A stretch of 54,314 bases of DNA from Prorocentrum cordatum (GCA_963575745.1 CAUYUJ010000250.1:62001-116314), one strand, 5' to 3'. Positions 1 to 46,462 are shown, counted from the stretch's first letter. Notes: generated from the letters alone by a model not told the origin. Translations and numbers: made by a program.

Positions 1-1100
1 GCCGCCCGTACACGCCGTCGGAGGAGTCACATCGGTCACCGTGGTATCAAATGACCCTCACGTGTCCGTCAGCGTCGTGTCGCGGCACACCTAGGTGCTG
101 ACCGGCGTGGTGCTGCTCGATAGTGTCGCAATCGGGGTCGTGCAGCTCGCAGCTGCGCTGCTCGTCGCGACCACGCTCGCGCGGCTGCTCATGCAGCCGT
201 GAAAGTGGCCGTGGACGTCGCGCTGCTCGGGATCGCACTGATCGCGACCGTGCTGCACGAGGTCGCACTGCTGGTCAGCTGAGGCGCACTGCGAGACAAC
301 AGTGCACTGGGGGTCGAGGTGGTGGACGATGCAATTGTGTTGCAGGTCGCGCACGGGCTAATCGTCGTGCCGCTGGTGCCGCTCGGGTAGGCAGACGACC
401 CCTGGTGCCGCTCGTGCTGGCCGTCGAGGACTCGCCCCGGCTAGCGTGGTATGAATGACCTTGTCGTATCCGTCGGCATCGTGCCACTGCTCACCGTGGT
501 GCTGGCCGGGCGGTACTGCTCGACTGCGTCGCACTCGAAGTCGTACTGCTCGACGTTGCGCTGCCCACCTCGTCCAAGCTCACGCTGCGGCTGCATGGCC
601 ACGTGGCGCTCACCGTGGAAGTGGCCGTGGACGTCCTACTGGACGAGACCGTACTGGTCGTGACCGTGCAGCTCGAGGTCGCTCTGCCGGTCATGTGATA
701 CGTACTGCCAGAAAGCGATGCACTGGAGGTCAGGCTGCGGACAATGCAGTTGCGTTGCAGGATGCGCTCGAGCACGGGATGCGCTCAAGCACGCCGCCGT
801 GCTGCTGGTGCCGCTCGTACTGGCCATAGTGGAGCGCGTCTCGTTCAGGGTGGGATTGAATGACCCTGTCGTATCCGCGGGCGTCGTGCCGCAGTACACC
901 GTAGTGTTGGCCCGCGCGGTGCTGCTCGACTGCGTCGCACTTGACCCGTACTCTTCGACGTTGCGTTGCACGTCTAGACTCCGCTCACGCTGCTGCTGCG
1001 TGCCAAAGTGGAGCCGCCGTGGAGGTGGCTGTGGACGTCCATGCTCGAGGCCGCACGGACCGTGACCGTGTTGCTCAATGTGCTGCTGGTCACGCTCGAG
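1..1100 (-). repeat. Diverged ~405-bp tandem repeat (about 3 copies) with Ser/Thr-rich coding character on the minus strand
   Basis: A motif like gtggtat(c/g)aatgaccct..cgtatccg..ggc(g/a)tcgtgcc recurs at ~41, ~446 and ~850. Minus-strand ORFs 491..775 and 636..1175 share SATQSSSTAR; the frames are broken. Confidence 0.7.
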
Positions 1101-20318: not shown

Positions 20319-22878
20319 TCAGTTTAAGATTGATCGCTCTTACTGGCACGCGTGTCTTGCATTCTTTATACCCAAACCCTCGATATCCGCCCACTTCGTC
20401 TTCGATTGCATCCCCCCTTCGGGGGGGAATATCTTCCTTGTCGGCCACTGGCTGAAGTCCTAGGAACTCTCGAGCGAGAGCGCCGTTCCTGAGTTCGGGG
20501 GCCTCTGGCCAGGGGTTCTCGGAAAACATATGGAGAAATATCGAACGGGAGCCCTTGTCGTTGTGGCTGGGCCTCCACCAAATTCCCTGAGTTACGGAAA
20601 AATCGCAAGCGAGAGCGCCACTCTTGAGTTCGGGGGCCTCTCTGGCAAGGGCCTTTGCGAGTACATCTCGAGGAAGTATCGAACGAAACCGCTTGTCGTC
20701 GTAGTTGGGCCTCCACCAGTTTGACTGAATCGCGAGAAAGTCTCGAGCGAGAGCGCCGTTCCTGAGTTTTGAGGCCTTCCTGGCCAGGGGCTCTCGGAGT
20801 AAATCGTGAGGAAGTATCGAGTAGAAGCCCGTGTCGTCGTGGCTGGGCCTCCGCCAACTTGATGGAATTGCAGGAAGTCTCGAGCGAGAGCGCCGTTCCT
20901 GAGTTCGGGGGCCTCTTTGGCCAGGGTGTCTGGGGGCAAATCGTAAGGAAGTATCGAGCGGGAGCCGTTGTCGTCGTAGCTGGGCCTCCAATAACCCACA
21001 TTTGCACTCAAGCCAACGCTCGAGCGAAAGCCTCGCTTTCAGAGAAAATGCAGCCGGCGTCAAAGCGAGAGCGCGCGGAACCGTTTCCGGAGATCAACTA
21101 GAATTTTCTTCCGACCTGGAAATTCAACAGCAACAACAACGACAACAGTAAGTTTAAGACTGTTCGCTCTCATCTGCTCGCGTGCCACTCAACACGTACA
21201 TCCCAAAAACCTCGATACCCGCCTTTTTCGTCTTCGATCGTACCCCCATTAAGGGCACATCTTTCTTACCTGCAACGTGTATTTCGCGCAGCCCCTAAGG
21301 CAAGGGAAGGGAGGACGGATGGAAGGAAAGGACAAGGGAAAGGGAGGAGGATGGAGCACGCGAGAGAGTAGCAGGAGGGGGGCTCGGAGCAGAAAACGCG
21401 TGGCAGGACCAAACAGGCGGATCGGGCGGGTAGACCCTGACGGGCGAGCCGGGAAGGAGGGCCCAGGCGGCCAGGTCGGGCAGGCGGCTTGCTGAAGCGT
21501 GCGTGGCGCATGGATCGCGAGGAAGTCTCGCGCGATAGCGCGACTCCCAAACAAATCGTGAGGAATCCATAGCGAGGGCTTGAGTCCTGACTGTGGAGGG
21601 CGCGGTGCCAGGCCCACGCGAGAGCGCGATTCCTGAATGAATTGTGAGGACGTCCCGCGCGAGAGCGCGATTTGGGAATACACTGTGAGGAAGTATCAGG
21701 CGGGAGCCGTTGTTGCTGTAACTCGGGAGCCACAGGCCCAATTTGGTGACCCCACGCTGCCCGCTGCAGAAAACAGCGTGCGAGCCCTGGAAGAGGCACT
21801 TCCAATGAAAAAACACCATGTGCCCCGGCGTGGGGATGAACAATAGTTATTCGTGAAACATGAAAATTCAACAGCAACAAATACAATTAGTTTAAGACTG
21901 TTCACTCTGAACTGCTCGCGTGCCACTCGGCACGTACATCCCCAACCCTCGATACCCGCCCTCTTCGTCTTCGACCGCACCCCTTTGGGGGTGTATCTTT
22001 CTTTCCTGCAACGTGTATTTCGTGCAACCCCTAAGGCAAGGGAAAGAGAGGACGGATGGAAGGAAGGGGCAAGGGGGAGGGAGGAGGAAGGAGCACGAGA
22101 GAGACTAGGATGGGGGGAGGCTAGGAGCAGAAAACACGTGGCAGAAACAAGCGGGCAGATCGGGCGGGTAGACCCTACCAGGCGGGTCGGGAAGGACGGC
22201 CCAGGCGGCCAGGTCGAGCAGGCGGGTTGCTGAAGCGTGCGTCCTCCAGGAATCGCGAGGAGCTTTCGAGCGACAGCTCGATTCCCAAATCAATCGTGAA
22301 GAAATCCATAGCGAGAGCGTCAGTCCTGAATGTCGAGGGCGCGGCGTGTGAATAAATCGCGAGAAGGCCCACGCGAGAGCGCGATTCCTGAATGAATTGT
22401 GAGGACGTCCCGCGCGAGAGCGCGATCTGGGAATAAATTGTGACGAAATATCAGACTGGAGCCATTGTTATTGTAGTTCGGGGGCCAACAACGCAGATTG
22501 AGGAGGAAGGCTTTCCCTGACAAAAAACCAAGTGCGAGCCCTGGGGAGGGCACTTCACTTGAAAAACACGTATGTTACCGGAGGGGGTATCAACAAAACG
22601 CATTTTTCAGCAATGAGAGTTCAGCAGCAACACCAACAACAACAATCATGTTAAGACTGTTCGCTCTTATCTGCTCGAGTGTCCGTTAACGCGTATTTCC
22701 CAAACCCTCAATACCCGCCCTTTTCGTCTTCGATCGTACACCTTTTGGGGGGTATACCTTTCTTCCGTGCAGGCTGGGCCCCGGCAAGCGGCGGGGCGGC
22801 CGCGGACCGTCGGCCTGGCCAGCGGCAGCGCTGATCGGCGGCAACCCGACTCCAAGAGGGACGGACAGGGGCCCGACC

Positions 22879-22959: not shown

Positions 22960-23650
22960 ACGAAATAGGCCACGAAGGGCGACAGCGGGGACACGAAGTG
23001 AATGCGTATGGGGCCACGAAGAGCGCGAAAGAGCGGGGGCCACAAAGGGCAGGCCACACAAGGCAACGACGGGGCCACTGAGGGTAGCAACTGGGCTACG
23101 TAGGACAGCGAGGGGGCCACAAACGGCGACAGCGGGGCCACAAAGGGGATGCACATGGGGCCACGACGGGCGTGAACGAGCGGGGGCCACGAAGGGCATA
23201 CATAAATGGGGCCACGACGGGCAGCGAGGGGGCCACGAAGGGCTGCAACGGCGCCTAGAAGAGCAACGTGGGGGCCACGAGGGGCTGCAACGGGGCCACG
23301 AAGGGCAGCGAGGGGGCCACGAGGGGCTGCAACGAGGCCACGACGGGCAGCGAGGGGGCCACGAAGGGCTGCAACGGGGCCACGACGGGCAGCGAGGGGG
23401 CCACGAAGGGCTGCAACGGGGCCACGAAAGGCAGCGAGGGGGCCACGAAGGGCTGCAACGGGGCCACGAAGGGCAGCGAGGGGGCCACGAGGGGCTGCAA
23501 CGGGGCCACGAAGGGCAGCGAGGGGGCCACGAAGGGTTGCAACGGGGCCACGAAGGGCAGCGAGGGGGCCACGAGGGGCTGTAACGGGTCCACGAAGGGC
23601 AGCGAGGGGGCCACGAAGGGCATACATATATGGGACCACGAAGGGCAGCG
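22960..23650. repeat. 21-bp tandem repeat organised as an alternating 42-bp dimer
   Basis: ggggccacgaagggcagcgag alternates with ggggccacga(a/g)gggctgcaac over 23207-23620. Confidence 0.9.
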
Positions 23651-24014
23651 ATGCCCCGATTCCTAAGTAATATGTGAAGGAGTCCTAAGCGTGAGTGCGA
23701 CTCATGGGTGCCTGAGTGTCGGGAGCGCGGCGCCTGAGTAAATTGCAGGAAATTCCAACCCAATGGCGCTATTCTTAAGTAAATTGCAAGCAAATCTTCA
23801 ACGAAAGCGCGACTCCAGAGCGCCGAGAGAGCGATCCCTAAGTAAGTGTGAGGAATGCCCGCGCGAGAGCGCGATTGCTGAATAAAACGCGAGGAAGTCT
23901 CGGAAGTCTCAGGCGGGAGCGGGGGGCCTGGCTAAATCGTGAGAAGTACCAGGCGGGAGCCGTTGTTGTTATAACGCGGGGGCCAGGGGCACAGTTTGAG
24001 TCCCAAGACTTTCC

Positions 24015-24752: not shown

Positions 24753-25031
24753 CCCTCCTCCTCCTCCTCCTCCTCCTCCTCCTCCTCCTCCTCCTCCTCC
24801 TCCTCCTCCTCTTCCTCCTCCTCACCTCCTCTCCTTCTTTCCTCTCCTCATGTCCCTCCTCCTCCTCCTCCTCCTCCTCCTCCTCCTCCTCCTCCTCCTC
24901 CTCCTCCTCCCCCTCCTCCTCACCTCCTCCTCCTCCTCCTCCCTCCTCCTCCTCCTCCTCCTTTTCCTCCCCCCCCTCCCCCTCCTCCTCCTCTTCTTTC
25001 TCCTCATATTCCTCCTCCTCCTCCCCCTCCT
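24753..25031. repeat. (CCT)n microsatellite, 3' flank of the LINE; contains candidate TSD 25011-25030
   Basis: cctcctcctcctccccctcc matches 30409-30428 (ccccttcctcctccccctcc) at 18/20 positions, with the last 15 identical. Confidence 0.8.
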
Positions 25032-26084
25032 CGCGCGTGGCCGCGGCGCCTCGGCCCCGCCACGCCCACGCCCCGCTAGCGCCACAGCTGGGCGCGCACG
25101 ACCTGGATGAGGGCTTCGGCCTCACTCCTGGCCAGAGGCCTGAGGAGGCGAGCTCGCATGGCTCGCAACTGCGTGTAAAGAAGACAGAAGGCAACGGGCA
25201 CCTCGAATCTCTGGGCCGACGGTGCCAGGAGCCCTAGTTTGTCGATCCCATCCCACCCAGGCTCCACCGCCCCCTCCCCAACGATAATGGTTACCAGCTC
25301 CGCCAAGACAGGGCATCGCCAGTAGTGACGGATGCAGTCGGGCTGGGCGCAGCCAACTACACAAGTCGACCCGAGCTGCTGAAACCGTTGCTGGGTCAAC
25401 TACGCTTTCGACAGAGTGCGGAGCATGGCAAACGCGTGCGATAATTTCATTCGGCACATAGTTTGGCTGACGGCGCCCCAATCTACACGGAGGATCTTTT
25501 CTTCCAGCTCGGGGAACCAACTTCGGAGCCCCCGCCGAAAAAAGAAACCGCGCGGCGCCCGAGGGAAAAAGGGTGGCCGTCGAAAAGGCCTGGAGGGCAC
25601 GTTGGATCCTCAAGCGCGGGGGGGCGCCGACCAGCTCGACTAAGCGCTGCGGCCTCAGAACTCAGGCGGTGGACCTCAGAATATCCAGGAAGAAGATGAG
25701 CCAGCTTCGGGTTCTCGGGAAAGCCTCTGGCAGCCTCTTGGAGCCTCTGACACAACGCAGCCCCCCCCCCCCCCCCCCCCCCCCCCCACCCCACCCACCC
25801 CCCCCACCCACGCACCCACCCCACCCCCCACCCACACCCACCACCACCACCACCACCACCACCCACCCCCCCACCCACGCCCCCCCACACCATGTCGGAG
25901 ACCACTCCCCCTTTCAGCACGCCCACGATCGGGAGCTTGCGGAGGGCCTGTTCACGAAGCTTGCGGGCGAGAGGGGGCCAGCACGTCGCAAAGGTGGACA
26001 GAGCAGCTCTGCCGTGCGCGGCGTAGGCGCCGAGGGTGACACGCAAGTTTCGCCCCCCCCCCCCCCCCCCCCCACCCCCCCCAC

Positions 26085-27866
26085 TAGGGCGCAGTGCGGG
26101 AAGTGGAAGATCCGAGCCAGCATCGCCACCTCCTGTCCCAGTAACTTCACGGGGGGAGGTAAAAACTGTGCAACATACGTCGGTACCGTCGCGCATCTGT
26201 TGTTATAGAGAACTGCAGCAAGAGCGGTTGGTGCGTTAGCTCCAGCCAGTAGGTGTCCTCTTTCCCGCCATTTCCCAAGAGGCCCCGCCCATGATTTTGC
26301 AAACGAGTTCGGGCCCACCCACGCCCCCAGGTACTTCAGGTTCGGGACAATCACAAAATCAGCCCAAGACGGAACGAACTCCTCCAGAGCTCGACGGTAA
26401 ACTGAAGCTAGCTCCTCACTGAACGGGCCACAGAGCGGGGCGATGAAGCATTTGCACGTTTTCAATATGAGCGCGGCCAACCGCTGGGCCCAGCTGAAGA
26501 TTCGGAAGAGGGCGGTCAGGTACTTCAATCGCATGATCACCCCGCCGATGTCATCTGCGCAAGCGAGGATCACACCCCGCGACAAGCCAACGAAGCTCCG
26601 TTCGAAGCACAGCAGGAACGGATTCAAACTTGCTGCAAACAAAGCTCCGCTTGCAGGGCACCCCTGAATGACAGCTGACCAGACGGTGAAGAGCCACACG
26701 GTAGCCCCGCCGAGGGACCCAAAGCAGTGAACATTCTGATAGAGGATGCAGAAGAACCACTCCAGGGGCCCAGGGAGATTCATTTTCTTCAAAACTTTGT
26801 GCATCCAGGAGTGCGCCACGGAGGGGAAGGCCTGAGCGAAATCGCACGAGACGATGGCGGGGAGGTTGGTTTCGGCCTGGTCTGACATCGAGGCGAGTCG
26901 AGCGTAGGTGTCTATTTCGATGATGTTCTCTCCGAACTGCCTGCCAATCGTGAAACCCCTCTGGAGCCGACAACTGACCTCAGCCATCTTGACCGAAAAC
27001 GGGCGCACCACCAGGTCAGTGAGAATCTTGTTCTCCGAATTCTTCAAGCCGAGCGGGCGGAGCGACTGGACGTCGCGGGTGGCTCCTCCTGCATCCCCTT
27101 CCTCCTCTCCCTTAGGTCTAGAAATGCCCAGCATATCGCTAAAACTCGATAACGGAGAGTGCCCATCCAAGATCCACCAAAGATATTCATCCAGCAGCTC
27201 TGCTGCCTGAGGTGCAGAGCGCCACGCAGCATACGGAAGCCGATCGGGTCCAGGTGCGCAGTCCGCCAAGGTCCTCAGTCGGGCTCTGGTGCCTGAGAGG
27301 GTCGGCGTGGGGATCTCCGAGAAGTCGAGATTGCCTCCGAAACGGTTCAGGCATTGATCAGCGGGACCTTGGAGCACCTGCTTGGGGCCAAAGACGCCAC
27401 CCCAGTAGCTGCAGATCGCCGCGGACATGGATTCGGGCGTCGTCGCCACTTCCTCACCAAGACGGATACCTTTCAAGTACAGACGGCGGTCGAAGGGCGC
27501 CGAAATGGCAGCCCGTTTTTGAAGACGACGAAGCTGTTGACGACGTTTACGACGGAGCTTCACAGGGGTCTCCTCATTGAGGTTCTCTTTGATGGTGTTT
27601 CGTTGGGCCTCTAAGTCCGCCGTCTGCAGCTGGTCAAGGTCCGCTGCAAACTTACCAGGATCGAGAAGCCAAAGCCGCCCGCTGCACACGTCGTAGCCTG
27701 GAACAGCACGTGCACTCGAATGCGCCTGCAGAAGGATCGAGCCAAGCTTCGCATCTTGCCTCCAGACAGCTCGGGCGATGCTCCGGTACAGAATGATACG
27801 ACCAAGTCTCGATGACGGGTCGTGCTGAAGAATAGCGTTACGTGCGAATCTGGCTCCTTCCTTCAT
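26085..27866 (-). CDS. Uninterrupted linker + reverse transcriptase portion of ORF2
   Basis: Track ORF 25914..27866; the RT motifs listed above are in order, with catalytic CADD at 26550-26561. Confidence 0.9.
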
Positions 27867-28619
27867 AAGATACTTGAATGACTAGACCTTCCGCGGCGGA
27901 GATAAGCTCTCCCAAGACACAGCCCTCAGGTGGGCCTCCATGAAGTCCCTGAAGTACGGGGAGCCAAAGAGCTCTTTGGGGATGGGGCGCTCTTGCTCTG
28001 GGGTCTGCGGGGTACTCTTGAGGTCGACGGAGACAGGGGCGTGGTCCGAGAGGTCCCGATGGAAGATGGTTTCGACGATGTCTTTCGTGGCCCCCAAGGC
28101 ATTCAATTGAATCAAGCCCCACCCTGGGAAAGACACAAAGGTCCAATCTATGATGTTCGTGGAGTCGTTTGCCAAACAATAATGGGCTGGGTCGGGTTGC
28201 TCAACCTCAACCATCTTGCTGAGCAGCGCTTGCCAAACAGGGCCCCGACGAGCTCTCCACTCATGGAATCCAAAATTGCCGCGAAACTCACCTCCCGGCG
28301 TCGAGGGCGACGGCGGGGTATTGCTGATATTGAAATCGCCAGCGACCACGACAAGAGTGCGCTCAGGAGCACACATCGCTAGCTGAAGCTCGAGGTCGAT
28401 CGCTTGGGTAACCTTCCTTTTCTCATCCCTGGAGAGCCCAAAATTGTGAACATTGTAATGCGATAACCAGCAGTCCCCAGACTCGCCAAAGCTCGCAACC
28501 ACGTTCAACACACGGCCTGGAACCAGTTCTTTAACCTGGAAGGAAACCTGAGCACCCAAATCAGGAAAGAATGTCAGCAGGCCGCCAACACGCGTGCTCT
28601 GCGGAGGTCTGGACGACCC

Positions 28620-28679
28620 ACACGACATGCATGCTCCTCTGGTCCCAATATTCTGCGCCTCGCAAGCGGCGCAGACCCA
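28620..28679 (-). other. RanBP2-type (NZF) C4 zinc finger inside the endonuclease domain
   Basis: WVCAACEAQNIGTRGACMSC is an exact match to W-x-C-x2-C-x3-N-x6-C-x2-C, followed by GSSRP. Confidence 0.85.
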
Positions 28680-28925
28680 CGGGGCAAAGGAGTGAAACAT
28701 CTTGCATATTTTGTGGATCTGGTACATCATATCCTCAGCCTCCGCCAGGGTCCCGTGAACTTCTTGGAGCCCAAGGATCGCGGTGGGAGAGATGAGGGAA
28801 CCGAGGTAAGAGATCTTCTGGCTGCGGAGGTAAAGGACATGGTGTAGCAAAGCCCTGCAGCTCCAGCTCGCGATCGTCAAGCTGGAGCGCGCGGCCGTTG
28901 GCCCTCGCCAAGCAGCCAAGAGTTG

Positions 28926-28932
28926 GCTAAAG
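28926..28932 (-). promoter_or_regulatory. Candidate +1 ribosomal frameshift site CUU-UAG-C at the ORF1/ORF2 junction
   Basis: ORF1 ends CGT CTT TAG C; the +1 frame TTT AGC CAA is the ORF2 frame. There is no in-frame ATG between the junction and the EN catalytic Glu. Confidence 0.45.
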
Positions 28933-30204
28933 ACGCCACTCCGTCTCAGTGGCGGAGTCGAACAGGCTGCCCACAGCCTGGCGAAGTCGCTCCGCCGACA
29001 TCTGGAGCCCCTCAATGTTCCTGTCGCTGAAGTGGATGATCGGGGGCTGGTTGCCAGGCGTCGGTTCGAAGGAGATGAGATCTTTCCACGAAGAGCTGAC
29101 CACCCCCTTCTCCCTGTCCACGAAATATTTCTTGTTCGGATACATGTCTGCAATGGCCCGCACAATTTTCTTACGTCCGAGCTCCCTGGCCACCTGCTTC
29201 GGGCTCGTGTCTGGGCTGATGGGCAGCTCCACCTCCGCACCGAGAGGCGACTGCGCAGTAATCTTCCCCCAGCCCGCACCGCGTCCAGGAAGTCCGAGTG
29301 CACTAATAGCTTGCGAAACCTGACGCGCAGCATAGCCACGCGCGCCCTTGACCATGTTCTTGTACCTCTTGTCCGCGGGCTCGCCCCCCACGGTGAACTC
29401 GCCGTCCCCCAGGTTGCTGCCCCCCAGCCACGGCTGCACAGCTCGTGCGATCGTTGCCATCGGCATGACCTCACGCGCCCGCACCATGATGATAGTCGGG
29501 TCGATCTCTCTGTCGAAGCCGCCGCTGGCCGCCTGGGGCCGAGGGGCCTCCTCACTGCGCATGAGCCCGAGCAAATCCCTGAGCCCCTGCACCCCCTTCT
29601 CCAACTTGTCGATACGCGTATCATGTACTGACACCTTGTGCTCAACCTTGCACATCCTTTTCTCCGCCGCTTTGTCGATCGATTTGCAATGATCCGACAT
29701 CGTGCCACTGAGCGCCGACAAAGAGGCTTGCATGAACCGAAGGCTTTCCATGACGTCGCTCCTCGTGCTGTCGATATACTGCTTGAGTTGCTGCTGCTCT
29801 TGATTTGCTGAGCCTTCAGCGCGGGGGCGGCGACGGCCAGGCAAGTCACTCGACCCACCAGCAGCTTCCGTAGCGGCGTGAGCCGTAGTCGCAGTAGCTT
29901 CTCCAGATGAACCGTCGCTGCCCACGTGGAACTGCTGGGGTGAGGAGCCGCCAGTGCCAGCACAGCCACCTGCACCTACCCCTCGCGGTGATTGAGCTCC
30001 ACGAAGAGTGGGGCATAGTTCTTCACCCTCAAAAAGGGCAGCAACGTCACGGGCACCATGCGTAGACCGAGGGGTGTCCATGCCGCTGTCCTCGCTGTCA
30101 CCTGCGCCGACCGTCTTCTGCGGCGGGGCCTCGTCCGAGTTATTCCGCCCCAGCTGTCGTCCACATCGTTTGCCAGAGGGGGGCGCGCCCGCGGCCGCGG
30201 ACAT
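28927..30204 (-). CDS. LINE ORF1 protein (425 aa; disordered N-terminus, coiled coil, putative RNA-binding C-terminal half)
   Basis: Open frame from gccATG at 30204 (MSAAAGAPP…) to TAG at 28927. Heptad-like QLKQYIDST…RIDKLEKGVQGLRDLL segment. Lies directly upstream of EN-RT. Confidence 0.85.
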   Translation of the reverse strand: MSAAAGAPPSGKRCGRQLGRNNSDEAPPQKTVGAGDSEDSGMDTPRSTHGARDVAALFEGEELCPTLRGAQSPRGVGAGGCAGTGGSSPQQFHVGSDGSSGEATATTAHAATEAAGGSSDLPGRRRPRAEGSANQEQQQLKQYIDSTRSDVMESLRFMQASLSALSGTMSDHCKSIDKAAEKRMCKVEHKVSVHDTRIDKLEKGVQGLRDLLGLMRSEEAPRPQAASGGFDREIDPTIIMVRAREVMPMATIARAVQPWLGGSNLGDGEFTVGGEPADKRYKNMVKGARGYAARQVSQAISALGLPGRGAGWGKITAQSPLGAEVELPISPDTSPKQVARELGRKKIVRAIADMYPNKKYFVDREKGVVSSSWKDLISFEPTPGNQPPIIHFSDRNIEGLQMSAERLRQAVGSLFDSATETEWRL

Positions 30205-30386
30205 GGCAGCGAGCCCTGCGCCCAGAGCGCGAGCAGCACTGAAGAGAGGAGGCCTGCAATGAGTCGGGGCGCGAGATGCGCCGTGGCCCCTGGCGGCCAC
30301 AGAAAGGCGGCTCGTGCCACCTGCGGAGGCAGAGACCAAAGCTAATCGCTGATTCTCGGACGTCTATAGTCCTTCACAACGTTAGC

Positions 30387-30408
30387 CTTGAGCCAAAATG
30401 GCTACGGA
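30387..30408 (-). other. Perfect dinoflagellate spliced leader (DinoSL)
   Basis: The minus strand reads TCCGTAGCCATTTTGGCTCAAG, 22/22 to DCCGTAGCCATTTTGGCTCAAG. Confidence 0.97.
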
Positions 30409-30682
30409 CCCCTTCCTCCTCCCCCTCCCTCCTCCTCCTTCTCCTCCTCCCCCTCAACCTCCTTGTCCTCCTCCTCCTCCCTCCTCCTCCTTCTCCTCCT
30501 ACTCCTCCTCCTCCACCTCCTTGTCCTCCTGCTCCTCCTCCTCTTCCTCTTTTTAACCGTATACGTATTAGCACTTGTATTACTGTTTTTATTCGGAATA
30601 CTATTATTAGTAATACGAGTACTGGTATCAGTACTACCAATAGTATTATTATTAGTAGTATTAGTATTGTTAGTATTATGGG

Positions 30683-34279: not shown

Positions 34280-35100
34280 TTCCGCCCCCCATGGGAGTGC
34301 TGAAACCAGCGCCTCGCCCGAAACATCCTCACAAACTGGTCCGAAAACAAAAAATGCTGCGCATGCAAACAAGCGAACCGCCTGAAACATCCCCACAATA
34401 TGGGCGCGAACGGGCCCGTGCAACACAACTTTTGCCGCCGCCCTCTGGGAGTGCTGAAGCCAGCGAGTCGCCTGAGACTTCCTCGCAAACTGCTCCGAAA
34501 ACAAGAGATGCTGCGCATGCAACCAGGCAAACCGCCTGAGACATCCCCACAATATGGGCGCGAACGGGCCCATGCAACACCCCCTTCTGCCGCCCCCCCT
34601 GGGAGTGCTGAAGCCAGCGGATCGCCGGAGACATCCTCACAAACTGCTCCAAAAGAAAAAGATGCTGCGCACGCAAACAGGCAAGCCACCTGAGACATCC
34701 CCACAATATGGGCGCGAACAGGCCCATGCAACACCCTGCTGCCGCCACCCCTGGGACTGCTGAAACCAGCGAGCCGCCAGAGACATCCTCACAAACTGCT
34801 CCGAAAGCAAAAGATGCTGCGCAGGCGAGCAAGCAAACCGCCTGAGACATTCCAACAATCTGGGCGCGAACGGGCCCATGCAACACCCCCTCTGCCGCCC
34901 CCCGTGGGAATGCTGAAACCAGCGAGTCGCCTGAGACATCCTCACAAGCTGCTCCGAGAACAAAGAATTTTGCGCATGCAAACATGCAACCACCTGACAC
35001 TTCCCCAGAATCTGGGCGCAAACGGACCCGTGCAACACACCCCTGACGTCCATTTTTGGGAATGCTGAAACCAGCGCGTCGCCTGAGACATCCTCACAAC
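34280..35100. repeat. ~153-bp tandem repeat, 5-6 copies
   Basis: tgggagtgctgaa(a/g)ccagcg…cctgagacatcc…gggcgcgaacgggccc recurs at ~34292, 34446, 34600, 34752, 34905 and 35057. Confidence 0.92.
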
Positions 35101-35536
35101 CTGCGTGTGCGAGTGATCCGATGAGTAAGTCTCAGTGGTGAGTGAATATAACTAAGAGTGGGCCTGAATGAGTCAATATGAATGTGGAAGTGGCGCAACT
35201 GAGTCTGAAGGAGGAAGAGTGCGTCTGAGCATGGGTGAAACTGAATGGTGAATGAGGACGAGGAGGAGGAGGGAGTGAGTCTGAGTGATGAGTACGAGGA
35301 AGTGAATATGAGTGATGGGTACGAGTGTGTCTGTCTGAATGATGAGCGTGTCTGAGTATGAGTGAGTCTGATTAATGAGCGAATCTGAATGAGGAGGAGG
35401 AGAAAGAGAGAAAGAGAGAGAGAGGTGAGGCGAGTGAGGTCCCTGGCGCGGTGTTAAAAAAATCCGGGCGAAAGACCCAACCATACGCAGTTGTGAATAC
35501 CGCAATTGTGAATACCGTCTTCGCCCGCGCTCCCTA

Positions 35537-35749
35537 TGCGGCCACGGCTTCCCGCCGAAGCCCGACATGGTCAGGGACACGTTCGTGGCCGTCTTCGCGG
35601 GCGCCGACGACGACGACGATGACGGCGTCCCTCTGATCGAGGAGCAGAAGCAGGAGAGGGCTCTGAGGGCCATGAGGGTGGAGGTGGCGTTGCACGTCGA
35701 CAAGGCGGAGTACGACGCCCAGGCGCGGTTGTTGAAGCAGCGCAACTAT
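35537..35749 (+). pseudogene. Short coding fragment resembling the N-terminal (DUF6570-like) region of Helitron Rep-helicase proteins
   Basis: FPPKPDMVRDTFVAVFAG…LHVDKAEYDAQARLLKQRNY resembles, from memory, the LPP..D...VF.G…V…L..LK..N..Y pattern. It runs directly into the 88-bp array. Confidence 0.35.
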
Positions 35750-36935
35750 GGGGCCACGATCCTTGTGAGGCGTGTGCCGAAATGGACCGAGGCCGCCAGG
35801 CGAACCCTGCCACTGGCGCCTTCGGTGGAGCTCCCATGGGGCCACGATCCTCGTGAGGCGTGTGCCGAAACGGACCGAGGCCCCCAGGCGAACCCTGCCA
35901 CTGGCGCCTTCGGTGGAGCTCCCTATAGGGCTACGATCCTCGTCAGGGGTGTGCCGAAATGGCCCGAGACCGCCATTCGAACCCTGCCACTGGCGCCTTC
36001 GGTGGAGCTCAGATGGGGCCACGATCCTCGTGAGGCGTGTGCCGAAATGGACCGAGGCCGCCATGCGAACCCTGCCACTGGCACCTTCGGTGGAGCTCCC
36101 ATGGGGCCACGATCCACGTGAGGCGTGTGCCGAAACGGACCGAGGCCGCCAGGCGAACCCTGCCACTGGGGCCTTCGGTGGAGCTCCCTACAGGGCCCCG
36201 ATCCTCGCGAGGGGTGTGCCGAAATGGCCCGAGGCCGCCATGCGAACCCTGCCACTGGCGCCTTCGGTGGAGCTCAGATGGGGCCACGATCCTCGTGAGG
36301 CGTGTGCCGAAATGGACCGAGGCCGCCATGCGAACCCTGCCACTGGGGCCTTCGGTGGAGCTCCCTATGGGGCCACGATCCTCGTCAGGCGTGTGCCGAA
36401 ATGGACCGAGGCCGCCATGCGAATCCTGCCACTGGCGCCTTCGGTGGAGCTCAGATGGGGCCACGATCCTCGTGAGGCGTGTGCCGAAATGGACCGAGGC
36501 CGCCAGGCGAACCCTGCCACTGGCGCCTTCGGTGGAGCTCCCTATGGGGCCACGATCCTCGTGAGGCGTGTGCCGAAATGGCCCGAGACGGCCATTCGAA
36601 CCCTGCCACTGGCGCCTTCGGTGGAGCTCAGATGGGGCCACGATCCTCGCGAGGGGTGTGCCGAAATGGCCCGAGGCCGCCATGCGAACCCTGCCACTGG
36701 CGCCTTCGGTGGAGCTCAGATGGGGCCACGATCCTCGTGAGGCGTGTGCCGAAATGGACCGAGGCCGCCAGGCGAACCCTGCCACTGGCGCCTTCGGTGG
36801 AGCTCCGATGGGGCCACGATCCTCGCGAGGGGTGTGCCGAAATGGCCCGAGGCCGCCATGCGAACCCTGCCACTGGGGCCTTCGGTGGAGCTTCCGATTG
36901 GGTCACGAAACGCTGTACTGGGTGTGCCGAAACAG
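35748..36935. repeat. 88-89-bp tandem satellite, ~13 copies
   Basis: Unit ggggccacgatcctcgtgaggcgtgtgccgaaatggaccgaggccgcca(t/g)gcgaaccctgccactggcgccttcggtggagctc. Confidence 0.95.
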
Positions 36936-38434: not shown

Positions 38435-39398
38435 TCCACACTCGTCCATCCGAAATATGAAATCAGACCATCCCAGGCAGGCCGGTTTCCTACCCCCTGA
38501 GGTTCCCTTGTAAAAAAAACATTATCCCGGCAAAGCAACCTAACAGCGATGTGTAGGAGCATATCTGGAAGCATTCCCCTTAAGATTCAGATGAGAATCC
38601 AGTTGTAGAATTGTGCTGTTCTCGCAGTCGTAGTCGCATTCGCGATGACAGTCGCAGCGGCAACGGCAGTCGCAGTCACAGCCTCAGCCTCAGCCTGCCT
38701 CCTCCTCCTCCTCCTCCTCTTTCTCCTGCTCCTCCTCCTCCTCCTCCTCCTCCTCCTCCTCCTCCTCCTCCTCCTGCTCGTCCTCGTTCTCGTCCTCCTC
38801 GTCTTGCTCGTCCTCCTCCTCCTGGTGCTCTCTCCTCCTCCTCCTCCTCCTCCTCCTCCTCCTCCTCCTCCTCCTCCTGGGTGGTCCTCGTTCTCCTCCT
38901 CCTGGTGCTCTCCCCCCCCCTCCTCCTCCTCGTCCTCCTCCTCCTCCTCCTCCTCCTCGTCCTCCTCCTCCCTCCTCCTCCTCCTCCTCCTCCTCCTCCT
39001 CCTCCTCCTCCTGGTAGTCCTCCCCCTCCCCTCCTCCTCCTCCTCCTCCTCCTCATGTGTAGGAGCATATCTGGAAGCATTCCCCTTAAGATTCAGATGA
39101 GAATCCAGTTGTAGAATTGTGCTGTTCTCGCAGTCGTAGTCGCATTCGCGATGACAGTCGCAGTGGCAACGGCAGTCACAGACACAGCCTCAGCCTCAGC
39201 CTCAGCCTCAGCCTCAGCCTGCCTCAGCCTCAGCCTGCCTCAGCCTCAGCCTCAGCCTGCTTCAGCCTCAGCCTCAGTCTGCCTTCAGCCTCGGCGTCAG
39301 CCTCAGGCCCTCAGCCTCAGCCTGCATCAGCCTCAGCCTCAGCCTCAGCCTCAGCCTCAGCATCAGCCTGCCTCAGCCTCAGCCTCAGCCTGCCTCAG

Positions 39399-39900
39399 CA
39401 TTCAAAATGTGGCCCGGGAATGTAGTTCTGGGAACTCGAAGAACACGAAGTGGCCTACAGTTGGCTCCGGGCATTCAAATTCATGCCCAGGAATGGAGTT
39501 CTGGGAACTCGAAGACCACGAAGTGGCCTACAGTTGGCTCCGGGCATCCAAAATGTGGCCCGGGAATGGAGTTCTGGGAACTCGAAGACCACGAAGTGGC
39601 CTACAGTTGGCTCCGGGCATCCAAAATCTGGCCCGGGAATGGAGTTCTGGGAACTCGAAGAGCACGAAGTGGCCTACAGTTGGCTCCAGGCATTCAAAAT
39701 GTGGCCCGGGAATGGAGTTCTGGGAACTCGAAGAGCACGAAGTGGCCTACAGTTGGCTCCGGGCATTCAAAATGTGGCCCGGGAATGGAGTTCTGGGAAG
39801 TCAAAGAGCACGAAGTGTGTGACTGTTGCATCCGGTTATTCAGAATGTGGCCTGGGAATGGGGTTCTGAGAGGTCGACGAGCACGAAGTGTGTGACTGTT
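39399..39900. repeat. 73-bp tandem repeat array 1 (~7 copies), preceded by (CAGCCT)n at 39185-39398
   Basis: Unit attcaaaatgtggcccgggaatggagttctgggaactcgaagagcacgaagtggcctacagttggctccgggc. Confidence 0.93.
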
Positions 39901-41171: not shown

Positions 41172-41735
41172 GAAAATGTGGCCCAGGAATGGAAGTTCTG
41201 GGAAGTCGAAGAGCACGAAATGCCTACAGTTGGCTACGGGCATTCAAAATGTGGCCCGGGAATGGAGTTCTGGGAACTCGAAGAGCACGAAGTGGCCTAC
41301 AGTTGGCTCCGGGCATTCAAAATGTGGCCCGGGAATGGAGTTCTGGGAACTCGAAGAGCACGAAGTGGCCTACAGTTGGCTCCGGGCATTCAAAATGTGG
41401 CCCGGGAATGGAGTTCTGGGAACTCGAAGAGCACGAAGTGGCCTACAGTTGGCTCCGGGCATCCAAAATGTGGCCCGGGAATGGAGTTCTGGGAAATAGA
41501 AGAGCACGAAGTGTGTGACTGTTGCATCCGGGCATCCAAATGTGGCCCGGGAATGGAGTTCTGGGAACTCGAAGAGCACGAAGTGTGTGACTGTTGCATC
41601 CGGCCCTCCAGAATGTGGCCCGGGAATGGCGGATCTCGAAGAGCACGAAGTGTGTGACTGTTGCATCCGGGTATTCAGAATGTGGCCTGGGAATGGAGTT
41701 CTGGGAAGTCGAAGAGCACGAAGTGTGTGACTGTT
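41172..41735. repeat. 73-bp tandem repeat array 2 (~8 copies)
   Basis: Same unit; starts at 41242, 41315, 41388 and 41461. Confidence 0.93.
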
Positions 41736-41869
41736 GGTGAAAAACGAGCCCGGCACCCTGCCGCCCGGCAACTCCCCAACACCTGCCCGGACCCCCCTGT
41801 GGAGTGATCTGTGAGCTCTTTTGAGTCAACTAGAAACCTATCAGTCTTCGCTGTTAGGTAACAAAAACA

Positions 41870-44169: not shown

Positions 44170-46462
44170 CATGGGACTGGTGGCGAACAGCTTCGCAGAC
44201 CGCAGGCCCAGGGGACGGCGAGCTAGTTGTGATGTGCGTAAGGCGTCACTCTACTGGCCCTCCGAGGCGCCTAGGAAAGTGGCAGCAGTTTCGCAGATCC
44301 AAGAAATCCAAGGACGGCGAGGTCTCATGGCAGTCCCCGCAGGACTTCACTCTGCTGGGCTCCCCAGGAGCCCACGAAAGTGGCGACAGTTTCGCAGATC
44401 GCAGCCCCCCATGGGACGGCGAGGTCTCATGGTGACCCCCGTAGGACGTCACTTTGCTGCCCCCCCCCCCAGGAGCCCACGAAAGTGGCGGCACTTTCGC
44501 GGATCGCAGAACCCCAGGGCCTGCGAGGTCTCATGGTGATCTCTGTAGGACGTCACTCCGATGGGCCTCTCAGGAGACAACGCAAGTGGCGATAGTTTCG
44601 CAGATCGCAGCTCCCCAGGGACGGCGAAGTCTCATGGTGATCCCCTTAGGACGTCACTGTGCTGGGCTTCCCATGCGCCCACGAAAGTGGCGGCACTTTC
44701 GCAGATCGCAGAATCCCAACGACGGCGAGGACTCATGGTGATCCCCGTAGGACGTCATTCTGATGGGCTTCCCATGGGCCCACGAAAGTGGCGGCACTTT
44801 CGCGGATCGCAGAACCCCAAGGACGGCGAGGTCTCATGGTGATCCCTGTAGGACGTCATTCTGCTGGGCCTCTCAGGAGCCCACGAACATGGCGACAGTA
44901 TCGCAGATCGCAGCTCCCCAGGGACGGCGAGGTCTCATGGTGATCCCAGTAGGACGTCACTCTGCTGGGCCCCCCAAGCGCCCACGAAAGTGGCGGCAGC
45001 TTCGCAGATTGCAGCACCCCAGGGACGGCGAGGTCTCATGGTGATCCCCGTGGGACGTCATTCTGTTGGGCCTCTCAGGAGCCAACGCAAATGGCGACAG
45101 TTTCGCGGATCGCAGAACCCCAACGACGGCGAGGACTCATGGTGATCCCCTTAGGACGCCACTCTGCTGGGCTTCGCATGCGCCCACGAAAGTGGCGACA
45201 GACTTGCAGATCGCAGCCTCCCATGGGACGGCGAGGTCTCATGGTGACCCCCGTGGGACGTCACTCTGCTAAGCTTCCCGTGAGCCCACGAAAGTGGCGG
45301 CCCTTTTGCGAATCGCAGAACCCCAGGGACGGCGAGGTCTCATGGCGATCCCTGTAGGACGTCACCCCGCTGGGCTTCCCATGCGCTCACGAAAATAGCG
45401 ACAGTTTCGCAGATCGCACCTCCCCAGGGACGGCGAGGTCTCATGGTGATCCCCTTAGGACGTCACTGTGCTGGGCTTCCCATGCGCCCACGAAAGTGGC
45501 GGCACTTTCGCAGATCGCAGAACCCCAACGACGGCGAGGACTCATGGTGATCCCTGTAGGACGTCATTCTGCTGGGCCTCTCAGGAGTCCACGAAAAATG
45601 GCGACAGTTTCGCAGATCGCAGCCCCCCAGGGACGGCGAGGCCTCATGGTGATCTCCTTAGGACGTCACTCTGCTGGGCCCACCAGGAGCCCACGAAAGT
45701 GGGTGCACTTTCGCGGATCGCAAAAACCCAAGGACTGCGAGGTCTCATGGTGATCCCTGTAGGACGTCACTCCGCCGGGCCTCTCAGGAGCCCACGAAAA
45801 TGGCGACAATTTCGCAGATCGCAGAACCCCAACGACGGCGAGGACTCATGGTGATCTCCTTAGGACATCACTTTTTTCGGCCCCCCAAGCGCCCACGAAA
45901 GTGGCGGCAGCTTCGCTGATTGCAGCACCCCAGGGACGGCGAGGTCTCATGGTGATCCCCGTGGGACGTCACGCCGCTGGGCTTCCCACGAACCCACGAA
46001 AGTGGCGGCACTTTCGCGGATCGCAGCCCCCCAGGGAAGGCGAGGTCTCATGGTGACCCGTGTAGGATGTCACTCCGATGGGCCTCTCAAGAGCCAACGC
46101 AAGTGGCGACAGTTTCGCGGATCGCAGAACCCTGGGGACGGCGAGGACTCATGGTGATCCCCTTTGGACGTCACCCTGCTGGGCTGCCCATGCGCCCACG
46201 AAAGTGGAGGCAGTTTTGCAGATCGCAGCCCCCCTGGGACGGCGAGGTATCAGGGTGATCCCCGTAGGACGTCACTGTGCTGGGCTTCCCATGCGCCCAC
46301 GAAAGTGGCTACAGTTTCGCAGAACGCAACCCCCCCAGGAACGGCGAGGACTCATGGTAATCCACGTAAGACGTCATTACGATGGGCCTCCTAAGAACCC
46401 ACGAAAATGGCGACGGTCTCGCTGATCACAGCCCCCCAGGAACGGCGAGGTCCCATGGTCTC
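44170..46462. repeat. ~101-bp tandem satellite, ~23 copies
   Basis: ggacggcgaggtctcatggtgatccc…taggacgtca…cccacgaaagtggcg…tttcgcagatcgcag recurs every ~101 bp. Confidence 0.95.

Follow-up and report, generated by a model that had tools for sequence, protein, structure and literature searches.

A LINE retrotransposon copy in Prorocentrum cordatum that begins with the dinoflagellate spliced leader

A LINE retrotransposon copy in the genome of Prorocentrum cordatum begins with the exact 22-nt dinoflagellate spliced leader (DinoSL), which lies on the minus strand at 30408–30387 and opens the inserted unit. The copy was analyzed in a stretch of 54,314 nucleotides (the window), from whose first letter all positions are counted. 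On balance, it probably represents a two-ORF, APE-type LINE, full length but now dead, which target-primed reverse transcription copied from a DinoSL-bearing RNA into a (GGA)n microsatellite. Its best reading is as the retrotransposon counterpart of the SL-tagged retrogenes of dinoflagellates. The copy shows an origin from leader-capped RNA, not self-maintenance of the element by means of the leader.

The leader and the inserted unit

The 21-nt core of the leader has a single match in the window (30387–30407, minus strand, 0 mismatches), and none of 100 dinucleotide-preserving shuffles of the window contains a match even when up to three mismatches are permitted. Base 30408 is a T and completes the 22-mer. 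These results confirm an earlier note on this DNA, which had the LINE opening with the full leader on the minus strand. The same note placed the leader about 180 nt upstream of the ORF1 start; the coordinates give 182 nt between the last leader base and the ATG at 30204. Like DinoSL-tagged retrocopies, the unit carries a DNA-encoded leader at its 5' end. Passages in several papers treat such a leader as an accepted mark of retroposed mRNAs (PMC7245778, PMC12014239, PMC6050394), and the assignment of the leader to the inserted unit is supported.

Upstream of the leader lies a (GGA)n microsatellite (TRF row 30414–30549), followed by AT-rich DNA and a (TAC)n array. A 15-mer is common to both junctions. 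On the 5' side it occupies 30428–30414 and is followed by AGGGG and then the leader, and on the 3' side it directly follows the end of the unit (25030–25016). The leader had been thought to sit directly inside this candidate TSD. The 15-mer is indeed found at both junctions, but it stands 5 nt from the leader and occurs five times in the GGA-type repeats of the window, so a duplication is unprovable inside the microsatellite.

Table 1. Features of the LINE copy and its flanks, listed in the 5' to 3' direction of the element
Feature	Position	Strand	Basis
5' flank, (GGA)n microsatellite (TCC on + strand)	30409..30549	-	sequence, TRF
DinoSL, exact 22 nt, first base T	30387..30408	-	exact match
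Segment X, 51 nt, starts GC; long hairpin pairing with the last four leader bases	30336..30386	-	
Remaining 5'UTR; opens with a pyrimidine tract, then CAG/G, resembling a 3' splice site (slash, boundary)	30205..30335	-	
ORF1, 425 aa, intact; low-complexity N-terminus, central coiled coil, C-terminal domain	28927..30204	-	
ORF2 endonuclease part, APE type; +1 frame relative to ORF1, no nearby ATG	27885..28892	-	
In-frame TAG dividing endonuclease from reverse transcriptase	27882..27884	-	
ORF2 reverse-transcriptase part; RVT_1 ~26439-27071, ADD active-site motif	26085..27881	-	
First G-rich tract breaking ORF2; extra relative to family members	26044..26088	-	
Second G-rich tract (GGGTGG-like) breaking ORF2	25749..25890	-	
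ORF2 C-terminal part, other frame; CCHC knuckle, stop TAG 25078-25076	25076..25543	-	
3'UTR, 45 nt, GC-rich, no poly(A) tail	25031..25075	-	
3' flank, (GGA)n microsatellite, opening with the second 15-nt candidate TSD copy	24754..25030	-	

The unit spans 25031–30408 on the minus strand (5.38 kb) and encodes ORF1, an APE endonuclease, a reverse transcriptase (RT), and a CCHC tail (Table 1). In profile searches, ORF2 exceeds the cut-offs of Exo_endo_phos (28.8 against 24.5 bits) and RVT_1 (34.7 against 29.6 bits). The endonuclease and the RT share one frame except for one TAG, and the tail has the motif C-x3-C-x7-H-x3-C. A RanBP2-like zinc ribbon, scoring below the Pfam cut-off, is inserted in the endonuclease part at ~28602–28682. 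Among solved structures the RT has distant relatives only, the best being R2 (5.8e-08) and L1 ORF2p (about 1e-4). Many of its 31 homologues carry both RVT_1 and Exo_endo_phos. ORF1 is taken as part of the LINE because one Prorocentrum cordatum gene model aligns to it as well as to ORF2.

The copy is defective: its coding sequence has frame breaks, a single in-frame stop, and G-rich insertions at two places. Two contigs of X1, the one sequencing run in which the family is found, carry GAA at the position of the stop, and the two G-rich tracts together add ~187 nt and a frame change. There is no 3' poly(A) tail, and the 3'UTR meets the (GGA)n repeat directly. The copy sits in gene-poor satellite DNA, and the window contains neither a recognizable gene nor a second copy of the LINE. 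In X1, 240 contigs map to the LINE at 80–100% likeness (25 at 99% or more, 48 at 95–99%, 75 at 90–95%, and 92 under 90%). The family is therefore multi-copy and interspersed, and it includes 5'-truncated members. Depth drops toward the 5' end, reaching 0–4 in the 700 nt of the body nearest that end, as 5' truncation of LINE copies would lead one to expect.

The junction lies at a microsatellite and has no usable read cover, with 30405–30440 left out as repeat when the X1 contigs were mapped, and the long G-rich tracts in ORF2 could be assembly or long-read errors. An assembly artefact, in which a leader fragment was misjoined to a LINE across low-complexity DNA, is nevertheless very improbable. 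No repeats occur in the leader or the 300 nt after it, a unique stretch that continues unbroken into ORF1, and a second LINE from an independent assembly, L157, has the same arrangement. Its 9096-nt contig reads (GA)n, leader, 5'UTR, ORF1, ORF2, A6, (GA)n, with the bare leader sitting directly on the LINE UTR. ORF1 of L157 carries a RanBP zinc finger, and its ORF2 carries APE, RT, and RNase H domains. The RTs of L157 and the window LINE have no BLASTP similarity (E 0.5). The first leader base of L157 is a C, which may belong to the flank; the contig was binned with a bacterium, and its dinoflagellate origin is assigned from the leader alone. Since this unrelated element has the same anatomy, full-length copying of leader-capped LINE RNA appears to recur.

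The RNA template and the 73-nt head

The dinoflagellate leader gets onto RNAs solely by trans-splicing from the SL RNA, so the 5' end of the template would have been set by RNA processing and not by an element-internal promoter. A longer transcript that starts upstream and includes the LINE would be trans-spliced and thereby receive the leader at its 5' end. Target-primed reverse transcription would then copy this leader-initial RNA to its first nucleotide, or to within one base of it, and the copy would be inserted in the (GGA)n microsatellite, possibly through a preference for purine microsatellites. The DNA leader would be a tag of the template's history, of the same kind as on SL-marked retrogenes. 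The earlier note had proposed that the LINE's own RNA was trans-spliced and copied to its first base. The leader-initial template is retained from this proposal, but the sequence next to the leader may be non-LINE. The 5'-end anatomy of the family is that of one copy (window 25031–30408).

The leader and segment X form a 73-nt head ending in UUUGG. An 89-nt fold over the head has a z-score of −2.94 and is equaled in 1 of 200 shuffles. No X1 contig links the leader or head to the LINE 5'UTR in a second copy, and X1 depth is 0 in the bin 30100–30280. The remaining 5'UTR (30205–30335) contains no significant internal leader relic. In X1, the sequence that follows the head from 30336–30338 onward is of at least two other types, found in 5 and 3 contigs (6 of the 80 loose ends listed). 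The two continuations are not homologous to the LINE 5'UTR, as 1825 and 2795 of 3000 shuffles score equally well. In one of the groups, a complete but degenerate leader follows 7 nt past the head (alignment score 25, a value that none of 2000 shuffles attains). The X1 junctions are more readily explained by a separable head than by an ordinary LINE UTR. The head is thus not necessarily the LINE's own UTR and may be a separate SL-led RNA joined by template switching or splicing.

For comparison, six canonical SL RNA genes were taken from L007, L008, L014, and L020. They consist of an A, the SL, GTAC, a hairpin, and a T-run; they are 59–65 nt long with a first base A, a GT donor, and a T4–6 end. 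Their neighbors are U1, U2, U5, U6, SRP, U3, tRNA, and rRNA genes. At the LINE locus, the first base is T, the leader is followed by GC, the hairpin ends after 73 nt, and only TTT is present. Neither a T-run of 4 or more nor a canonical intron was found after the LINE leader, and no Rfam RNA gene reaches the gathering score across the whole window.

The copy could also be a chimeric retrocopy, in which the LINE RT, after the end of the LINE RNA, switched onto a separate 73-nt SL-led small RNA. This RNA would be either a non-canonical SL RNA variant, with an 'intron' starting GC, or a leader-derived small RNA, and the LINE RNA itself would need no trans-splicing. U6-L1 chimeras in mammals arise by such template switching. 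The fixed 3' boundary of the head in the eight contigs points in this direction, as does its bin depth in X1 (39.1, compared with 0 to 4.3 in neighboring 5' bins), and the degenerate leader 7 nt past the head is what an RT switching away from a leader-capped mRNA at its 5' end would leave. The head, with an exon hairpin, a long second hairpin, and a terminal U-run plus GG, has the general SL RNA layout, as described in a section of PMC3101222. A GC start has precedent in Fugacium, where, according to a passage of PMC6616646, SL loci have GC as well as GU after the leader. We nevertheless regard such a chimera as unlikely. In its length, GC start, TTT, and first base T, the head is unlike all six canonical SL RNA genes. 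Segment X resembles none of the 153 distinct sequences that follow the leader in two collections (166 SL occurrences), and L157 shows that a LINE can bear the bare leader directly on its UTR. If the head were a small SL-led RNA, the copy would share the architecture of U6-L1 and snRNA-L1 chimeras (small RNA at the 5' end, a LINE or mRNA copy after it, one set of flanks), and SL-RNA chimeras would add a new class to the known retrocopies. It would differ from them in that the head has no match to the six canonical SL RNA genes and the LINE part is essentially full length.

LINEs are also found together with spliced-leader sequence in SLACS, CZAR, and CRE of trypanosomatids and NeSL-1 of C. elegans. 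These elements use a restriction-like endonuclease to cut inside SL RNA genes, and their insertions have SL gene sequence on both sides. A comparable site-specific insertion, next to or within SL RNA genes or their arrays, is suggested here only by the LINE and the leader physically adjoining, and we consider it hardly credible. The window LINE has an APE-type endonuclease, no residual SL gene sequence is present at its 3' junction, and one and the same microsatellite flanks it on either side. The canonical intron, the T-run, and neighboring snRNA or 5S genes are all absent, and there is one leader only in 54 kb. An SL RNA gene or array in the flank had been named beforehand as evidence against a leader-bearing LINE RNA; no intron, T-run, or RNA gene was found in the window. 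Insertion into an SL RNA gene is accordingly contradicted by the window (APE, GC start, no T-run, (GGA)n on both flanks).

Re-expression and the source of retrogenes

In L1 and insect LINEs the 5' end is maintained by an internal promoter, and in R2 by an HDV-like ribozyme. The window LINE faces the same problem, a defined full-length RNA 5' end with no upstream promoter in the copy. Here the 5' end would be set by host trans-splicing, but as the history of the template RNA and not as a working cycle. Such a cycle has been suggested: a promoter-less, self-sustaining family would have its 5' end remade each generation, as new copies are released from read-through transcripts by trans-splicing at the terminal AG of the DNA leader. 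Two unrelated LINEs with a complete leader and no relic are compatible with it. With a purine microsatellite upstream, the sole pyrimidine-rich stretch before an AG would lie in the leader itself, a setting that would favor use of the terminal AG. Parts of Song et al. (PMC6050394) contain a separate proposal that retroposed leaders aid the expression of retrogenes. We consider this cycle quite improbable. The lack of stacked 15-nt relics had been said to fit reuse of the terminal AG, but relic absence is the norm and does not discriminate, as 18 of the 19 complete leader sites in genome_contigs, and 134 of 134 in viral_contigs, have no relic beside them. Where traces of re-splicing do exist, as in the two stacked 15-nt relics of L013, an internal AG was used, the usual pattern in the sections of PMC12014239 and PMC7245778 that deal with it. 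The copy is also broken and lies in satellite DNA with no recognizable gene in 54 kb, and the data could be accounted for just as well by a small number of master copies that use an ordinary acceptor upstream. A broader generalization, which we hold to be doubtful, is that dinoflagellate LINEs are promoter-less, with a hard-coded leader, purine-microsatellite sites, re-expression only through terminal-AG re-splicing, and possibly the portable 73-nt head as their 5' end.

Lake giant viruses with promoter and DinoSL cassettes are likewise parasitic genomes that encode the host leader at the start of a transcription unit. In the viruses, however, the leader directly follows a conserved AT-rich promoter, whereas the LINE copies have only microsatellite upstream.

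The preferred reading, a retrocopy of leader-bearing LINE RNA, is closest to the DinoSL-tagged retrogenes, which also carry a DNA leader at the 5' end of the copy of a trans-spliced RNA. The LINE differs from them in that its cargo is an autonomous retrotransposon and not a host gene, it has no poly(A) tail, and its leader is complete and terminal instead of a truncated 15-nt relic behind a new leader. Relic spliced leaders have been described in dinoflagellates (Slamovits and Keeling 2008, through passages of PMC6050394, PMC12014239, and PMC7245778; Song et al. 2017), and no earlier description of LINEs starting with a DinoSL was found in the portions of the literature searched.

The copy bears on the questions of which elements drive retroposition in dinoflagellates and how their retrocopies come to be expressed again. 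A leader at the first base of a LINE indicates that LINE RNA enters the trans-spliced mRNA pool and that LINE reverse transcription can get to the capped end, and the product resembles an SL-tagged retrogene exactly. All dinoflagellate nuclear mRNAs are thought to be trans-spliced, and a leader-bearing LINE is therefore not very surprising to specialists. A leader-first copy nevertheless makes LINEs a concrete candidate for the engine behind SL-tagged retrogenes. LTR elements are favored as mediators of retroposition in the part of the review PMC6050394 that treats this question.

Microsatellite-specific LINEs include Kibi/Koshi (Tx1 group), Waldo/Mino (R1 clade), and Dong, which share with the window LINE and L157 the presence of the repeat on both flanks; here, in contrast, there are two insertions only, from two unrelated families. 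The recurrence of this microsatellite setting in a second, unrelated LINE suggests that the pattern is general, and its instances can be counted in any dinoflagellate assembly. Both the window LINE and L157 lie inside purine microsatellites that flank them on either side, and in both the purine strand is the sense strand.

The spliced leader at the 5' end of a LINE copy

On the minus strand of the window, a (GGA)n microsatellite is followed by a complete dinoflagellate spliced leader, TCCGTAGCCATTTTGGCTCAAG (30408-30387), and then by unique sequence. The earlier note had placed this leader at the start of a LINE, and the observation is real: the match is exact, its 21-nt core occurs once in the 54,314 bases of the window, and the ORF1 ATG (30204) follows after 182 nt. 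None of 100 dinucleotide-preserving shuffles produced a match, even with up to three mismatches permitted. An internal leader relic in the 5'UTR of the element is not significant, as 595 of 2000 shuffles reach an equal score.

Features of the LINE copy in the window and of L157, an unrelated leader-tagged LINE from the genome_contigs collection
Element	Feature	Position or extent	Strand	Description
Window	Leader	30408-30387	minus	first part of element
Window	5'UTR	182 nt	minus	between leader and ORF1
Window	ORF1	425 aa, intact	minus	Pfam: weak coiled-coil match only
Window	ORF2	+1 frame	minus	APE endonuclease PF03372, 28.8 bits (cut-off 24.5)
Window	RanBP2-like zinc ribbon	28602-28682, within endonuclease	minus	21.6 bits, under cut-off 27
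Window	Reverse transcriptase (RT)	ORF2	minus	PF00078, 34.7 bits (cut-off 29.6)
Window	Knuckle C-x3-C-x7-H-x3-C	near ORF2 end	minus	
Window	3'UTR	45 nt	minus	without poly(A) tail
L157	Contig	9096 nt		70% GC
L157	5' flank	1-115		(AGAGAC/GA)n
L157	Leader	116/117-137		
L157	UTR	93 nt		
L157	ORF1	RanBP zinc finger, about 400-480		30.9 bits
L157	ORF2	open frame 2536 aa		APE 36.7 bits, RT 43 bits, RNase H 25.9 bits
L157	3' end			stop codon, about 35 nt, A6, then (GA)n again

The relatives of ORF2 are proteins of ~1200 aa with the same domain order. Only one match has a name, a gene model from Prorocentrum cordatum with 46% identity; since this model also aligns to ORF1, ORF1 is part of the element. 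The solved structures closest to the RT are R2 (5.8e-08) and L1 ORF2p (about 1e-4). No relatives of the LINE were found in viral_contigs; genome_contigs holds five distant RT loci on low-GC contigs, with the leader absent at up to four errors.

Several defects mark the copy. An in-frame TAG occupies 27884-27882, where two contigs of the sequencing run X1 have GAA, the start of ORF2 has no nearby ATG, and a pair of G-rich tracts, at 26044-26088 and at 25749-25890, makes the copy ~187 nt longer than the relatives and shifts the frame. These tracts (poly-G, GGGTGG-like) lie inside ORF2, are not found in the relatives, and could be genuine expansions or long-read assembly errors.

The element is flanked by (GGA)n on both sides (30409-30549 and 24754-25030), and its sense strand is the purine strand of these flanks. 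An identical 15-mer is present at 30428-30414 and 25030-25016, the 5' copy being separated from the leader by a 5-base spacer, AGGGG. A target-site duplication is plausible but unproven, because the 15-mer occurs five times in the window. GGA/CCT-type arrays make up ~4% of the window (summed from tandem-repeat rows), which makes a random hit unlikely for an insertion with (GGA)n on both sides. At least seven CCT/AGG arrays are present in the window.

The remainder of the window consists of microsatellites and satellites. None of its 28 long ORFs reaches the Pfam cut-off, leaving no recognisable host gene, no Rfam family reaches the gathering score, and the element has no second copy there. Many unrelated satellites are present, at 20468-20990 (138 nt period), 23069-23651 (42), 34282-35104 (154), 35748-36908 (88), 39398-39890 (73), 41173-41736 (73) and 44180-46459 (101).

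Comparison with SL RNA genes and other leader sites

A leader scan for reference SL RNA genes returned 119 stretches in viral_contigs and 20 in genome_contigs, the latter from eukaryotic contigs wrongly assigned to bacterial MAGs. Among the 154 distinct leader sites, six are canonical SL RNA genes of 59-65 nt, in which A, leader and GTAC are followed by one hairpin and T4-6, and which neighbour U1, U2, U5, U6, SRP, U3, tRNA and rRNA genes. They agree in length, T-tract and clustering with published SL RNA genes, described in the main texts of PMC12584245, PMC3101222 and 10.1101/2024.02.20.581179 as ~59-65 nt long, with a conserved intron and T-tract ends, and clustered with small RNA genes. 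The canonical loci (L007/L151/L161, L008/L152, L014/L156 and L020/L160) are on contigs filed in bacterial bins, and these contigs are eukaryotic because eukaryotic rRNA, snRNA, SRP, U3 and tRNA genes adjoin the SL RNA genes.

The leader in the window continues into GC, not GTAC, has no T-run of four behind it, and has microsatellite on both sides with no RNA-gene neighbours. The possibility raised earlier, that the flank of the leader is an SL RNA gene or array, is thereby answered in the negative. Rfam gives no match near this leader, and is blind to the canonical SL RNA genes too. Insertion is targeted to SL genes in SLACS, CRE and NeSL, and an insertion in this manner is ruled out here by the GC, the missing T-run, the flanks and the APE-type endonuclease. 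The leader with the next 51 nt (X, 30336-30386), hereafter the head, was also considered as a canonical SL RNA gene and rejected, since X starts with GC, a T4 run is absent and the length is 73 nt.

The first base of the leader is A at 136 of the 154 distinct sites, both collections pooled. The site L158/L018 could be a divergent SL RNA gene: its leader begins with A and runs into GT and a long structured stretch with no early T-run. Complete leaders also occur at many gene starts on dozens of contigs from giant-virus MAGs (within L022-L140 of viral_contigs; e.g. L032, L041, L052, L039, L050), where they directly follow either of two conserved, AT-rich motifs ~25 nt in length; a literature search found no description of this arrangement. 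An exact 21-nt leader match is also present in two records labelled bacterial, L147 (a 5.3-Mb chromosome record) and L153 (a 209-kb contig). About 0.3 chance matches are expected in the whole collection (an estimate), and these two may reflect chimeric assembly or transfer.

The leader as a probable mark of the template RNA

The leader is added by trans-splicing only, as established in the main texts of PMC7245778 and PMC12014239, and published main texts accept a DNA-encoded leader as a mark of retroposed RNA. In the simplest reading, an RNA that contained the LINE and was capped by the leader would have been the template, and copying would have run through to its first nucleotide. Because the leader comes from trans-splicing only, the 5' end of this RNA would have been set by processing of a transcript begun upstream. 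The earlier suggestion of a trans-spliced template copied to its first base stands. The host leader tags this LINE copy, and an unrelated LINE carries the tag as well.

This second LINE, L157, is complete and is one of the 20 genome_contigs leader sites, seen with longer flanks. BLASTP shows no similarity between its RT and that of the window (E 0.5). LINEs of two unrelated lineages, from two assemblies, thus have in common a leader placed precisely at the 5' end, no relic (a 15-nt leader remnant) directly behind it, and purine microsatellite on both flanks. Further copies of the L157 family are absent from its own MAG; one 37% relative, L270, lacks its 5' end and contains no leader even with five errors allowed. 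A tblastn comparison of LINE proteins with 139 leader loci, each taken with 1.5 kb of flank, turned up a single RNase H-like match, P0031 on L108, and no LINE. Among 123 leader loci with long flanks L157 is the sole LINE, with RNase H-like matches on L197 and L245, and none of the viral_contigs leader sites is a LINE. Both LINEs contain a RanBP2-type zinc ribbon, in different proteins (endonuclease in the window, ORF1 in L157).

Leader-tagged retrocopies on mis-binned contigs (L146/L002, L149/L005, L017 and L157/L015) often have microsatellite on the 5' side, namely a GT/GC-rich repeat, (TCA)n, (ACAG)n and (GA)n, compared with (GGA)n at the window element. By our own count, ~4 of 9 informative leader sites abut microsatellite, a share possibly biased by assemblies breaking at such repeats.

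LINEs or other retrotransposons starting with the leader are not described in the main texts of PMC3229502, PMC3942190, PMC12014239, PMC7245778, PMC8045281, PMC6050394, PMC11453091, PMC6616646, PMC3101222, PMC12584245 and 10.1101/2024.02.20.581179. In the main text of PMC6050394, retroposed leaders are proposed as possible promoters and LTR elements are deemed the likelier mediators of retroposition.

The earlier note took the lack of stacked relics as backing for re-use of the terminal AG of the leader as an acceptor. This argument does not hold, since absence is the rule: a relic directly follows a complete leader at 1 of 19 genome_contigs sites (L013, with two stacked) and at 0 of 134 in viral_contigs. 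The re-splicing trace in L013 used an internal AG, as do the traces in the main texts of PMC12014239 and PMC7245778. A self-sustaining cycle by terminal-AG re-use is a speculative idea to which the purine-repeat flank lends some appeal, as the sole pyrimidine stretch before the AG would lie within the leader. The window copy speaks against it, being broken and in gene-poor satellite DNA, so that its transcription is not suggested. The data fit equally well with a small number of master copies that have an ordinary acceptor upstream.

The 73-nt head

Of three sequencing runs, only X1 (presumably DNA; Logan contigs) contains part of the stretch, with 0.19 of its words; X2 and X3 gave no contigs on it. 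The X1 contigs possibly come from the same or a related organism and are hence not independent proof. Across ORF2 and in the 3' half of ORF1, the 240 contigs aligned on the element reach a bin depth of 10-54. Depth drops to 4.3, 2.05 and 0 across 29738-30280 and is back at 39.1 in the final bin, 30281-30440, where alignment is limited to the leader and X. Within the best 6 of 80 loose ends listed, eight contigs contain the head and exit from the reference at 30336 (five, heterogeneous) or 30338 (three, 90% agreement). The sequences into which they continue show no homology to the window 5'UTR (1825 of 3000 and 2795 of 3000 shuffles score equally), and that of the three contigs contains a complete degenerate leader 7 nt on (score 25, which none of 2000 shuffles attains). 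Leader and X thus behave as one unit that ends at a fixed 3' boundary and is joined to different sequences.

Two readings remain within the best explanation. The head may be a conserved 5' head common to several elements, or the LINE transcript may have acquired it by splicing, as a leader exon; for the latter, a good-looking acceptor, a pyrimidine tract then CAG|G, lies directly behind the head. The main rival is template switching onto a small SL-led RNA, by analogy with L1 chimeras, in which U6 is copied in this way. X is found nowhere else in the window and resembles none of 153 distinct leader-downstream sequences (166 SL occurrences); a metagenome scan for leader and X gave only L001, a 23-nt chance match without leader. 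Because X resembles none of these downstream sequences and the head does not fit a canonical SL RNA gene, the first two readings stay in the best explanation and the small RNA is kept as a rival.

In its predicted fold, the head has the small hairpin of the leader and a long hairpin pairing the last four leader bases, with a UUUGG end; an 89-nt fold has a z of -2.94, and 1 of 200 shuffles folds equally well.
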